A DNA stretch of 64,000 nucleotides from Sumerlaeia bacterium (GTDB taxonomy: Bacteria; Sumerlaeota; Sumerlaeia; SLMS01; JAHLLQ01), in the NCBI GenBank assembly GCA_040219255.1, contig JAVJSW010000004.1, positions 113,054 to 177,053 on the forward strand, read 5' to 3'. Each line of letters starts with the position of its first letter. The first letter of the stretch is position 1. The translations under genes and the position numbers were made by a program. The notes under the pieces are model-generated. The model saw nothing but the letters and a program-made list of their open reading frames with translations. It was not told where the DNA came from and made no database searches. Of this stretch, positions 30,489 through 48,697 are shown piece by piece.

Positions 30489-33400
30489 ATGAAGCCCACG
30501 CGTTTGTTTCTGTGCACGGCCCTTATGGCCATTCTTGCGTCCACACTGGTCCGTGCGGAAGTCACTCAGAAGGTAGAACTTAGGCCGGGATGGAACCTCT
30601 ATTCGGCTTGGTTCGACTCTCCCGCTTTCGTCGACCCAGAGATTTATTTTTCTCCTTTGCTAGAGGGGACGGAGGGCACTAAGCCGCTCAAGCTGGCTTA
30701 TCGCTGGCGCAACACAACGCCAGACGGTGACCCGTTGGCCGCGGCGGATGGCGAGTGGTCGCTCTACGTTTTCGACATTCCGTCCTCGCTGCCCGACTTT
30801 CCGACGACCGCTGGGGCGTATCTGCTGGCGGATCCAGAATTCACGCAACTTGAGAAATATCAGGCCTATTGGCTTTACCTCGAACTGCCTGTCGACGAAG
30901 AGTCGGTCGATTTCGTGACGACCGGGACACTCGGCCCGGGGGCGGTGCATTTCGATCGGGGGTGGAATCTGCTGGGGTTGCCGCTGGGGGATTCCTTGGC
31001 GGTTTCGGGGACGCGGACTCAGATCGATTTCGAGTCGGTGCTGCGCGGGGCGCGCGACCGAATCGCCGAAGTGTACTACGTGGATTCCAATAACGGAACA
31101 GGATTTTATCCCGCCGAACCGATCGAAGGCGCCATCCCGGCGATCAGCACTTTTTTCTCCGGCAGTTTCGTTTCCGGTTCGGGCAATTGGTTTTACGCGA
31201 CGGAAGATTTCGATCTCACACCGAAACTGAGAACTGTCTTTCCGCCCGATTCGGATTTTCCTCCCGAGAACCTCAATGGTGCGCCGGTGGCTGACGACGT
31301 GGATCGCAATCGCTACCACAATGTCACGGGCATCATCGAGGACGGCGAGGATGTGCGCGACATCGTCTTCCGCTTTCAAGCGCTGGAAGCACTCGTCGAG
31401 GAAGTGCTGCCGGTGACGATCTCAAACCGGGGCACCCGTTCCGAGTTGGAGAACGCCGATCCCGAAGACGACGGCCAAGGTGTCCTGGCGTACCAGGTCA
31501 CGTGGCATCCGCTGCGGCCGGGATATACGACACCTCACGATCCGCTGACCACGCCGGCCGCAAGCGCCTACATCCCAGTGGACGACTTCAGCGAATTCCC
31601 GGAGGATTCACCGTTCCGCACCTGGCTGCGGGCTTTGCTGCCGACCGAGACGCGGGTGCTGCTGCCCGATGGGCGGGTCGACCCGGTGGTGGTTTCGCGG
31701 GCGCAGCCACTGAGCGAGAACCCGGTGACGGGCTTTTCCTCGACGGATATCAACGGCCTGACTCTCGTTGCGGATCGAGCCGGGCTGCCGGTGAATACCT
31801 CGACGGCGGATGTGGATTCGCAGGGGGCGCCCAAGCCGATCAACAATCTGCTCGCGCATGGCGAGTTGCACATTCACAGCAACGCGGCGCCGGTGAGGCG
31901 CGTTCGCGTGCGGGCGGAAGTCCCGCCCCTGGCCGGCACCTTCGAGGGCAAAGCCTACATCACGCGCATCAATGGCATTCCGGCCGATCCGGCCTTCTCG
32001 ATGGACATGTCGCTTTCGCTCTTCGAGGACGCGGAGCAGCGGCTGCGCGGCGTCATCGATTCGGAGCGCGTTCTGCTCTATCCAAAGGATGTGCCGATCA
32101 CCGGGACGAAGCTGACATCCGATGGAAACCGTTATGTCCTGACGGGGTCGTTCTTTCTCAACCCGGGCGACGTGAACCGCCACCCTTACGACCGCTACAA
32201 TCCATCGCTGTCTGACGATGGCACGGGCGATGTGGACTGGGATTTGGATGGGAAGTACGACCGCCTGAATCCGCTGCCATACCTGATCGAGCGCTCCATG
32301 ATTTTCTATGGCTACCGCGAGAGCGACCGGCTTCTGTCCGGCGAGTTCTCCGAAACGCTCGCCGGACTGACCGCCGAACCGATGAACCTGGAGGGCGTCT
32401 TCGAGGTCTTGCGTGTCAGTTACGAGGCGCGCAAGCGGGGCGAGTTGTCCTGGACCAACCCCCGCATTATCGCCATGGACGCCACAGGCCTTAGCCCTTT
32501 CGAGGAAATTCGCTCGACCGTGAAGGTGGACCGGCCTGTGCGCATCGACGATCTGACGGTGGAACTCGCCATCGACCATCCGCGGGTTGGCGATCTGGAA
32601 GTTTCCCTTCAGGCACCGGACCTGAATGAGTACGTGATCTTCGCCGTGGACGATTTCACCTCGGGCGGCGTCAACTTCGATGGCCGCACGGCAAACCTTT
32701 ACGAAGCCTTCAGCTCGGCGCCCACCGCGCCGCCCGGCTCTCTCCAGTACCGCAAGAACCGCACGCGGCGGGCTCCGGACCTGGGCAAGTTGAAGGGCGT
32801 CGTCGCGGGAAGCGCGACGCTCTACGGACGGGCCTCGATCAACGGCGAGGAAACCCCCAACGTCCCGGCGGCGCTGGACTCGTCCCAGACGGCTTGCTTC
32901 AGCCTGTTTTCCGAGTCCGGGGGCTTTCTCTGCGATCCCGCCGACCCCGGCTCCGAGCCCCCGGCGGCTCTTGCCATCGCCAACAATTCCCGCACCGTCC
33001 GCGTCAGTTCCTGGTACTTCCGCTCGGGCGCCTCCGAGGACGAAGTGACGGACTTGGTTTGCTCGACAGACGGCTTCGCGGCTCGCTACCTTTCGACCGG
33101 CGATCCACTGGAAGCGGGGTCCGTGATCGGTGTGGTGCTCAGGGCCGATCCCAATCCCATCGATCCAAACCCCAACGATGGCGACACCGCGACGACCACC
33201 AGTTGGCTCCTCGACATCGACACGTATCAGGCCGGACTGTCTTATCCACCGCAGCTCCTGGAATTCATCGAAGCCCGGACGCTGCCGACCTGCCAGGACA
33301 ACCTCGCCTTTCCCAATTTCTCCGCCGCACCCCAGGTCGAGGAACGAGCGGGCAGCTTGATCCTGAGCGCCCGCGACCGCAGCGGAGCCACCTTCCGCGG

Positions 33401-48076: not shown

Positions 48077-48697
48077 ATGAAACCGCAACGAATCTTTGGT
48101 AGTACTGGCATTATGCTAGCGATTCTCAATCTACATATTGGATTCGCCCCCGCCTCCACCCCCGAACCCGACAACATCCTCTACGGCCACGTCGTCTTCG
48201 AGGACGCCCCCGCCACCGCCCCCGACCTCCGGGGTATCGAAGTCCAGGCCCGCTTGGTCTCCGGCGCTTCGCCCCCTGGCGAAGTCCTCGCCACCTACAC
48301 CATCGGCGACATCGATCGCGCCGAAGCCAATCAGTACGTCCTCAAGATCAAGGTCGATGCCGCCCCGGCGTCGCGGCCCCGTGCGTTGGAGGATGGCGGG
48401 ACCTTCGCGCTCTTCATCGACGGGCATCAGGTCTCGGCACCGCTCGAAGCCGGGGGCATCACCGACACCGCGGCCATGTTCCGCGAGGTCGACATCGCCC
48501 TCGACCCCGGCCTCCGCGCCACCGCCACCGACGTCCTCGCCCATCTCCTCGGCATGGCGCCCCTCACCGGACTCAAGCTCGCCACCGCCGACATCAATGG
48601 CGACGGCACGGTGAACGTGGCGGACTACCTGCACCTCTCGCGGCACCCCGAGAAGGAGACTCGCACCCCACCACCGCCAAAGGACCCCGCCGTCTGA
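48077..48697 (+). CDS. small secreted protein with a dockerin/EF-hand-like Ca-binding loop
   Basis: The SD AGGAAGGA precedes ATG 48077 (alternative ATG 48044). The signal peptide is MKPQRIFGSTGIMLAILNLHIGFAPAS and the Ca-loop is ADINGDGTVNVAD. Confidence 0.55.
   Translation: MKPQRIFGSTGIMLAILNLHIGFAPASTPEPDNILYGHVVFEDAPATAPDLRGIEVQARLVSGASPPGEVLATYTIGDIDRAEANQYVLKIKVDAAPASRPRALEDGGTFALFIDGHQVSAPLEAGGITDTAAMFREVDIALDPGLRATATDVLAHLLGMAPLTGLKLATADINGDGTVNVADYLHLSRHPEKETRTPPPPKDPAV

Follow-up and report, generated by a model that had tools for sequence, protein, structure and literature searches.

A probable divergent, Sec-exported Tc (ABC) toxin complex with a small TcA-like protein in a Sumerlaeia bacterium

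Introduction

A cluster of five genes on a 64-kb stretch of DNA from a Sumerlaeia bacterium (assembly GCA_040219255.1, contig JAVJSW010000004.1, positions 113,054 to 177,053; hereafter the window) probably specifies a divergent toxin complex of the Tc (ABC) kind that is exported by Sec and in which several small parts share the role of the TcA translocator, a reading to which we assign a probability of about 0.72. Tc toxins have been studied as large insecticidal or pathogen weapons and as programmable protein injectors. To our knowledge, all characterised TcA translocators comprise at least ~1900 residues in the modelled protomer and have no signal peptides, and pathogens of the Enterobacterales type are their main source.

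Results

A five-gene cluster that includes a small TcA-like protein

All five open reading frames (ORFs) of the cluster, which lie on the + strand at positions 30489–48697, were confirmed in the window, and the tight junctions described in an initial annotation made from the sequence alone were reproduced together with their coordinates; the Pfam content of the genes agrees with the domains listed there.

Gene A, 30489–35237, + strand: 1582 amino acids; start backed by homologue alignment
Gene B, 35234–38260, + strand: 1008 amino acids; GTG start within a GTGA overlap with the stop codon of A
Gene C, 38324–40381, + strand: 685 amino acids; 63 nucleotides 3′ of B; AGGAG 9 nucleotides upstream
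Gene D, 40422–48041, + strand: 2539 amino acids; TTG start, 40 nucleotides 3′ of C
Gene E, 48077–48697 (or from 48044), + strand: 206 (or 217) amino acids; 35 (or 2) nucleotides 3′ of D

The TTG start at 40422 that had been proposed for D is also NCBI's own call, with the same 2539-amino-acid product, and the ATG of E at 48077 is preceded by a GGAAGGA Shine-Dalgarno sequence.

B had been said to carry no recognised motif, and indeed it had no significant match in Pfam (searched up to an E value of 10), in NCBIfam, in PHROGs or, by phmmer, in the PDB. A word-indexed search of 5.8 billion proteins returned only five relatives (53–71% identity), whereas 1.84 billion cluster representatives, searched exhaustively with a profile, yielded 124 B-family clusters, mostly of 900–1050 amino acids and ~20% identical to B. 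A first AlphaFold2 (AF2) model of B, made from six sequences (B's close homologues), had a predicted local distance difference test score (pLDDT) of 47 and was unusable. A second model, built on a 92-sequence alignment drawn from the exhaustive profile search, reached a pLDDT of 88 and a predicted TM-score (pTM) of 0.72, and it divides B into the following parts.

Residues 1–21: signal peptide
Residues 26–465: helical domain
Residues 467–537 (70 residues) and 549–637 (89 residues): long helical hairpin of two helices with a disordered loop between them
36791–36919, + strand: hairpin tip, residues 520–562, ALIIGVLQSVYDGIIAG-KPDNPFNASPSAS-IAAGARTFLGTI; putative membrane-inserting channel end
Residues 645–680: further helix
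Residues ~680–770: mixed segment
Residues ~770–1008: beta-rich C-terminal domain

When this model was compared with the PDB by Foldseek, the best 16 matches were all TcA subunits, each at a probability of 1.00, with E values from 2.1e-11 to 6.3e-6 and 764–998 columns aligned. The chains matched, which come from six species, were YenA2, TcdA1 in its prepore and pore forms, TcdA4, XptA1, XptA2 and TcaA-TcaB; for YenA2, the E value was 2.1e-11 in one structure (9c4k_B), and in another (6ogd_B) 998 aligned columns of 1078 were obtained. The first match other than TcA was Umb1, at an E value of 5.8e-4 and a probability of 0.38. The predicted model appears to have the helical shell, hairpin and C-terminal domain of the TcA fold, and its elements (helical domain, long hairpin, beta-rich C-terminal domain) follow the order found in TcA. 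Moreover, across the 92-member family the hydrophobicity of the hairpin peaks at residues 520–562, where the two long helices are joined by a low-confidence loop (residues 538–550), and a hydrophobic maximum at this tip fits a membrane-inserting channel end. On the strength of the predicted model, we consider B very probably a homologue of TcA.

The initial annotation had seen no TcA here and had therefore presented the locus as an orphan TcB-TcC fusion and a candidate new delivery system, while allowing that a divergent TcA among its genes would make it a Tc locus; with B a structural homologue of TcA in its predicted fold, the locus falls on the Tc side of that division. The description of B as essentially all helical also has to be revised, given the beta-rich C-terminal domain, and the idea that B serves as a helical shell or channel fits its TcA-like fold. 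B does not have the features by which TcA is recognised from sequence, namely Pfam TcA families and a length of ~2500 amino acids in one chain or a split pair of that total: neither A nor B matched VRP1, Neuraminidase-like, TcA_RBD or TcA_TcB_BD in Pfam at E values up to 10, and B has 1008 amino acids. The ~440 helical residues that precede its hairpin leave no room for four receptor-binding domains (RBDs), and the beta-sandwich modules of the cluster lie in the separate proteins A and C rather than being inserted in B; the mixed segment of B (residues ~680–770) may or may not represent a reduced neuraminidase-like domain.

One other protein matched the B model as strongly as the TcA chains did. 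This was A0A481Z1I0 in BFVD, an uncharacterised 1032-amino-acid protein from a giant-virus metagenome bin, Mimivirus LCMiAC02 (E 3.4e-11, 812 columns). A giant virus may thus carry a gene of the B family, or the bin may contain contaminating bacterial sequence.

A TcB-TcC-type cocoon with a basic tip

The reading of D as a cocoon of the TcB-TcC type that bears a Sec signal peptide was borne out by Pfam, by NCBIfam, by its best PDB match and by the N-termini of its homologues. Its two parts are as follows.

D core, 40422–47477, + strand: signal peptide (residues 1–35), SpvB, FG-GAP beta-propeller, TcdB middle region, YD/RHS shell and Rhs-associated core
D tip, 47478–48041, + strand: residues 2353–2539 plus the stop codon; hypervariable; putative encapsulated cargo or toxin

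Pfam matches to SpvB (7e-27), FG-GAP_3 (four copies), TcdB_toxin_midN (7e-18) and RHS_repeat (9e-17) are followed by Rhs_assc_core (TIGR03696) at residues 2269–2352, so that all elements of the cocoon are present in the order of canonical TcB-TcC, and the best PDB sequence match, by phmmer, is TcdB2-TccC3 (3.5e-32). Homologues of D begin with a signal peptide that is followed directly by a conserved DKSGVKPxVLSLP motif. Autoproteolysis of TcC has as its signature aspartates in ...DP... and PxxxxDxxG (PMC7861908). The D core contains FVSTDP and then ends in P2344-LGLM-D2349-PG-G2352, a sequence (PLGLMDPGG) that fits the PxxxxDxxG signature for self-cleavage, and the same motif occurs in the D homologues of three loci described below (L004, L011 and L017).

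The tip that would be released by such a cleavage has 187 amino acids, a mass of 21.0 kDa and an isoelectric point (pI) of 9.54, and it satisfies both of the published thresholds for cargo translocated by the TcA of P. luminescens, a size of at least 20 kDa and a pI of at least 8 (PMC6868009). It has no relative in Pfam, PHROGs or the PDB. The tips of L004, L011 and L017 are related neither to it nor to one another, and no Pfam family was found for them either. No N-terminal PAAR or VgrG-binding domain, as expected of Rhs proteins of type VI secretion systems (T6SS), is present in D, where SpvB comes directly after the signal peptide. We also considered whether D might be teneurin-like and set this aside, because D has SpvB, FG-GAP and TcdB_midN and not teneurin-specific modules.

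Conservation of the cluster in other loci

Thirteen independent loci besides the window were compared, all of them re-checked together by tblastn. An SpvB/RHS gene stands beside the B-family cassette in seven of the 13, so that the co-occurrence of A-B-C with such genes, raised earlier as a check on the five-gene cluster, is indeed found elsewhere; three loci have no such gene in the available sequence and three contigs end too early to tell. Among the close relatives (B at least 51% identical), L001, L002, L004, L005 and L007 all have the order A-B-C-D, and D is present in all six close loci, the window counted, whose contig extends that far; the contig of L006 ends early, as do those of the distant loci L014 and L015. 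The linkage is also seen where B is only 21–24% identical: L011 carries C, A, B and a 2182-amino-acid SpvB/RHS gene, and L017 carries an A-B fusion, two C-like genes, a 2268-amino-acid SpvB/RHS gene and another C-like gene. In the window B adjoins a bona fide TcB-TcC fusion, and in these two loci SpvB/RHS genes adjoin it even at this divergence; both points support the Tc reading. Judged from gene order and sequence comparison, A-B-C is the conserved core, and the suggestion that the five genes act as a functional unit agrees with the synteny in six of six close loci, with the A-B fusion and with a homologue of E at L004.

Several of these loci have features of their own. At L017 (1–10000) the cassette comes directly after genes for ParA/ParB, RPA replication, Replic_Relax and TrwB-type coupling proteins, which suggests that it probably lies on a plasmid or an integrative conjugative element. 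A divergent sigma-54 activator and a Ser/Thr kinase-WD40 protein adjoin the cassette at L005 (660–6344) and L006 (5228–9812), and kinase, TPR and PAS-LuxR genes lie near it at L002 (1768–5638) and L003; no regulator neighbour of these kinds is found at the cassette of the window. L013 (3011–22509, GCA_016795365.1) has two A-like/B-like pairs, two Kelch proteins with the N-terminal domain of C, a Collar protein and an E-like protein, with no SpvB/RHS gene within 23 kb; here the cargo of the A-B-C module may be a different one, or a cocoon gene may lie elsewhere, unlinked to it. At L016 (10001–19431, JGI 3300025738), a protein with a B-like C-terminal region (P0086) is followed by a B-like gene of 945 amino acids, and an A-like ORF lies further downstream. 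Finally, the D homologue of L002 (15096–20511) was called as three consecutive ORFs of 191, 792 and 834 amino acids, reflecting either a frameshifted pseudogene or an assembly error.

Gene A and its tie to B

In addition to its signal peptide, A has N-terminal modules with a GWNL motif, two P-domain-like modules and one CarboxypepD_reg-like module, with Pfam matches to P_proprotein (4e-17) and CarboxypepD_reg (1e-9). An A-family profile found only beta-sandwich structures in the PDB (NOMO2, scaffoldin and carboxypeptidase regulatory domains), and since these are generic domains we rejected the idea that A could be recognised by sequence as the N-terminal half of a split TcA. The start of A deserves comment. 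Its longest ORF opens 30 codons upstream of the signal-peptide ATG (30399–30488), and NCBI calls a protein of 1526 amino acids that starts ~56 codons downstream and lacks the signal peptide; we favour the start at 30489 because all ten aligned A-family proteins begin with a signal peptide.

An A-like gene lies directly upstream of B in the loci compared, with the exception of L016. In L017 (GCA_023701485.1, JAMQBK010000096.1) the two are joined in a single protein of 1833 amino acids, P0072, whose residues 62–586 match the A profile (hhalign E 7.8e-43) and whose residues 840–1828 match nearly the whole B profile (hhalign E 2.9e-74). P0086 of L016 (2196 amino acids) was examined as a second such fusion and discarded, its N-terminus not being A-like. 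Together with the GTGA overlap in the window, the fusion suggests that A and B act as one unit, and the occurrence of A and B both fused and separate parallels the TcA of ABC toxins, which is fused in type I and split in type II (PMC11435725). A is probably a beta-rich secreted partner of B that supplies the outer shell or the receptor-binding mass held by inserted RBDs in canonical TcA.

A modular fibre-like protein and a small accessory protein

Gene C falls into a conserved and a variable part.

C conserved N-module, 38324–38833, + strand: signal peptide and a ~130-amino-acid domain; putative attachment domain
C variable head, 38834–40381, + strand: ends in Kelch-type blades; putative receptor-binding module

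The N-domain is common to 10 of the 11 C-like proteins that we collected from six loci, was found by tblastn in the loci whose sequence reaches the position of C, and matches Bdello_MAT_N (NF053851) of NCBIfam below the cut-off (E 0.008, 16 bits against a cut-off of 60). The heads differ among loci: in the window a Kelch match of 7e-14 covers residues ~592–672 at the C-terminus, and elsewhere we found Kelch, Collar, Peptidase_S74 or no recognised domain. Peptidase_S74, an intramolecular chaperone, and Collar are hallmarks of tail fibres. A shared N-domain with unrelated heads is the pattern of exchangeable receptor-binding fibres, and it fits the role of receptor binder that C had been given. 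Base composition singles out the same module, as well as the tip of D. Against 63.6% GC for the window, the C head has 51.4% (C N-domain, 64.3%) and the D tip 46.3% (D core, 65.1%), which suggests that both were recently acquired from lower-GC donors.

E has a C-terminal Ca-binding-type loop (dockerin or EF-hand-like), its dockerin match being weak and below the cut-off (8e-4). A homologue with 36% identity (2e-15) lies 3′ of D in L004, a 200-amino-acid gene that follows the cassette in L009 matches E more weakly, and a faint Ca-loop signature at the C-terminus is common to these E-like proteins apart from that of L004, which has no Pfam match. In L013, a 277-amino-acid gene after B resembles E by eye and has a weak Ca-repeat match. 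We considered E as an immunity protein and rejected this, since E is kept between the window and L004 despite their unrelated tips; conservation independent of the tip points to an accessory rather than a tip-specific immunity function, and by sequence E is a small, secreted, conserved accessory protein. No tip-matched immunity gene is evident, the gene after E being a convergent major facilitator superfamily (MFS) transporter.

Signal peptides and the route of export

That all five proteins begin with Sec-type signal peptides was corroborated: each N-terminus combines a charged n-region and a hydrophobic core with an AxA-type site. Signal peptides likewise open the homologues of A, B, C and D and, by a hydrophobicity heuristic, 69 of the 77 N-terminally complete relatives of B. 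Canonical Tc toxins have no signal peptides and leave the cell by lysis through the type X secretion system, or T10SS (PMC10847048). The locus in the window shows neither trait, and no holin, endolysin or spanin domain, and thus no lysis cassette, was detected among the window ORFs scanned. An MlaD gene paired with an ATP-binding cassette gene in the window points to a diderm envelope.

It had been stated that the TcB-TcC cocoon is not Sec-exported, which is too strong. In the part of the paper available to us, Zhang, Aravind and colleagues in 2012 catalogued a TcdB/TcaC export class with a signal peptide, SpvB, an integrin-like propeller, RHS and a variable C-terminal toxin in many environmental phyla, and they treated the SpvB/propeller module as the determinant of the export pathway (PMC3482391).

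Comparison with known systems

Among the closest counterparts of the cluster are the type II ABC toxins (YenA1/YenA2-YenB-YenC of Yersinia entomophaga and TcaA/TcaB of Y. pseudotuberculosis; PDB 9c4k, 6ogd and 6rwb), of which the channel-bearing half, YenA2, is matched by B. As in these toxins, two neighbouring genes share the A function, the second of them supplying the part that bears the channel, and the cocoon consists of SpvB, propeller and RHS. Extra subunits also decorate the YenTc particle, namely chitinases in Yersinia entomophaga; here their counterparts would be A and C. Unlike in type II toxins, B has ~1000 amino acids and no sequence-detectable TcA domains, its upstream partner A is beta-rich and by family profile shows no relation to YenA1 or TcaA, TcB and TcC are fused, and targeting is apparently delegated to separate fibre-like proteins. 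A further difference from YenTc, which lacks signal peptides and relies on T10SS lysis (PMC10847048), is that all parts in the window carry Sec signal peptides.

PTC3 of Photorhabdus luminescens (TcdA1 with TcdB2-TccC3; PDB 6h6e, 6h6f, 6sue and 4o9x) provides the best match of D in TcdB2-TccC3 and is matched by B in both the prepore and the pore of TcdA1. The cluster shares with it the PxxxxDxxG motif and a basic ~21-kDa cargo (for the rules, see PMC7861908 and PMC6868009), but TcdA1 holds four RBDs and a neuraminidase-like domain in one chain of 2516 amino acids, and PTC3 has no signal peptides, no partners of the A, C or E type, and an ADP-ribosyltransferase as its cargo.

The architecture of D is exactly that of the TcdB/TcaC class, and D fits this class (PMC3482391). 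Many of these toxins have immunity genes, of which none is evident in the window, and unlike the class as the available part of the 2012 paper describes it, the window adds a linked miniature TcA-like protein, the A partner and fibre proteins. C-like proteins share with phage tail fibres and with the mosaic adhesive trimer (MAT) fibres of Bdellovibrio (NF053851) the layout of a conserved N-module and exchangeable heads; in contrast to both, C is found in a toxin cassette rather than on a virion or a predator surface, and it stays below the NF053851 cut-off.

By fold and context the locus is a variant of the Tc/ABC toxins; in sequence signature, in size and in having signal peptides it departs from them, and it is neither canonical nor categorically new. 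No ~1000-amino-acid TcA-like protein or cassette of this kind was described in the literature that we searched, the coverage of which was incomplete. As far as that search could tell, the novelty lies in the linked ~1000-amino-acid TcA-like protein, its obligate beta-rich partner and the modular fibre proteins.

Surroundings of the cluster

The genes on either side lie on the opposite strand, which suggests that the cluster is a self-contained unit.

Upstream flank, 29120–30118, − strand: N_methyl, prepilin-type protein
Downstream flank, 49063–50382, − strand: MFS transporter, convergent

Prompted by the sigma-54 activators next to the L005 and L006 cassettes, we scanned for sigma-54 promoters and found none upstream of A; matches in the window were not above chance. 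The reported absence of PAAR, VgrG, TpsB and type I secretion system components held for the window ORFs scanned, in which we detected no domain of these kinds and none of a T6SS either.

Beside the N_methyl gene just upstream of the cluster are two overlapping ORFs without a Pfam match (27063–29002, −). A second pseudopilin (N_methyl/T2SSG; 19707–20465, +) has as neighbours a sugar ABC transporter and two glucanases of the GH16-CBM6 type; no complete type II secretion system is present in the window. Four further large ORFs have coding-like GC content at third codon positions and no Pfam match (E ≤ 0.001): 14671–17922 (−, 1083 amino acids), 60143–62695 (+, 850), 5634–7262 (+, 542) and 53912–55264 (−, 450). 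The housekeeping genes include transketolase and SmpB (38–2839 and 8110–8598), and the closest named relatives of the transketolase are from Candidatus Sumerlaeota/Sumerlaeia (58–63% identity).

Discussion

The reading of the cluster as a Tc toxin complex has to be set against several observations that weigh on the other side. Two profile searches with B, one of them with a 92-sequence profile, found no TcA in the PDB, and the sole sequence trace is that 2 of 51 B-family members touch TcA_TcB_BD in Pfam at an E value of 0.19; nor is there any TcA-like signal in A, as judged from its family profile against the PDB. The TcA matches of the B model have global TM-scores of 0.26–0.31 for the best 15 and 0.21 for the sixteenth, with large root-mean-square deviations. 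Such low scores are expected if relative domain positions differ, and the homology consequently rests on local 3Di scoring of a predicted model. At L009, L013 and L016, where B is likewise only 21–24% identical, B-like and A-like genes have no adjacent SpvB/RHS gene in the available sequence; L009 and L013 carry C-like genes as well, and the L009 contig ends ~3 kb after B. Two of the other tips, those of L004 and L017, are acidic (pI 4.2 and 5.4). Scans for sigma-70 promoters and terminators are uninformative in DNA of 64% GC. Whether as a complex of more than 1 MDa or in parts, the toxin would also need a way through the diderm outer membrane.

The main rival, which we consider unlikely, takes the same proteins for a contact-dependent weapon: all five would be Sec-exported and kept on the outer surface of the producer, with C and A as adhesins and B and D delivering the tip only on cell-cell contact, for instance into nearby bacteria or prey, instead of being shed as free toxin particles. 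The signal peptides on all five parts and the lack of a lysis cassette in the window would suit this arrangement, as would the weak resemblance of the C N-domain to the Bdellovibrio fibres and the Collar and Peptidase_S74 heads, which are typical of fibres that bind bacterial surfaces; polymorphic toxins with SpvB, propeller and RHS are, moreover, usually read as inter-bacterial weapons (PMC3482391). However, Pfam and NCBIfam revealed no membrane anchor, lipobox, beta-barrel or sorting signal in the five proteins, there is no tip-matched immunity gene, the conservation of E being independent of the tip, and for a diderm target an extra step would be needed, since a channel of the TcA type spans a single membrane.

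A second alternative, in our view distinctly improbable, is that D alone is an ordinary Sec-secreted RHS toxin of the TcdB/TcaC class, that A, B and C form an unrelated adhesin or surface module travelling with it and that the match of B to TcA is spurious. Helical proteins do draw spurious Foldseek matches, and further down our lists are found SMC and tape-measure proteins as well as designed repeats; B lacks a significant sequence link to TcA, its TM-scores are low, and the three loci just named have A and B without an adjacent D. Yet TcA accounts for 16 of the 16 top matches of B, by five to eight orders of magnitude over any other fold and over nearly its whole length, including the non-helical C-terminus, and the adjacency of B and D, with tight junctions, is kept down to 21–24% B identity. 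Absence of D from some loci is also less telling given that canonical tcB and tcC are often unlinked from tcA (PMC7861908).

That the cluster is a phage-like or mobile-element remnant or cargo module, made of tail-fibre-type proteins and a tape-measure-like helical protein, is hardly credible: the tail-fibre domains of C-like proteins, a sub-threshold TMP_N match of B in Pfam (E 0.09), tape-measure proteins among the weak BFVD matches and the ParA/ParB, relaxase and TrwB genes next to the L017 cassette are outweighed by the lack of capsid, terminase, portal, sheath, tube and baseplate genes near any locus, by empty PHROGs searches for A, B, C, the tip and E, and by tape-measure matches at least seven orders of magnitude weaker than those to TcA.

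If the cluster does encode a Tc toxin complex, its parts would be exported by Sec and then released across the outer membrane. B would be a miniature TcA, with a remnant of the helical shell, a two-helix channel hairpin with a membrane-inserting hydrophobic tip and, where TcA has its TcB-binding domain, a beta domain at the C-terminus, and A would be its beta-sandwich-rich, translationally coupled partner. C would serve as a fibre-like adaptor, attaching to the particle through its N-domain and selecting the target surface through an exchangeable head, here Kelch, and E as a small conserved accessory protein. D, the TcB-TcC cocoon, would cleave itself after PxxxxDxxG, keep the basic 21-kDa tip unfolded and dock through its propeller on the C-terminal domain of B; the hairpin tips of a B oligomer would then enter the target membrane and let the tip domain through. 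In this scheme we infer the oligomeric state and the contacts between parts, and likewise the outer-membrane route, the trigger, the organism attacked and what the tip does there.

We tentatively suggest, at somewhat less than even odds, that the cassette represents a third architectural class of Tc/ABC toxins. This would be a minimal injector with about half the usual A-subunit mass, exported part by part through Sec and assembled outside the cytoplasm, which takes its specificity from exchangeable tail-fibre-like proteins rather than from built-in RBDs; it would occur across uncultivated environmental phyla, and its targets might be protists or other microbes instead of insects. Its TcA-like component escapes sequence profiles of Pfam, NCBIfam and the PDB and emerged only through structure prediction from a deep alignment. 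The cassette offers a candidate partner for some SpvB/RHS "orphan" toxins that carry a signal peptide and have lacked a clear route of delivery since 2012, and its swappable fibre heads and swapped low-GC cargo amount to the plug-in targeting design that is sought for Tc-based delivery devices. The ~124 clusters of ~1000-amino-acid TcA-like proteins, with their linkage to TcB-TcC cocoons in environmental bacteria, would widen the phylogenetic and architectural range of these toxins and hint at a minimal unit of channel, shell and docking domain. If the small form is ancestral, TcA would have reached its present size by taking up its binding partners through fusion, a course that the natural A-B fusion suggests.

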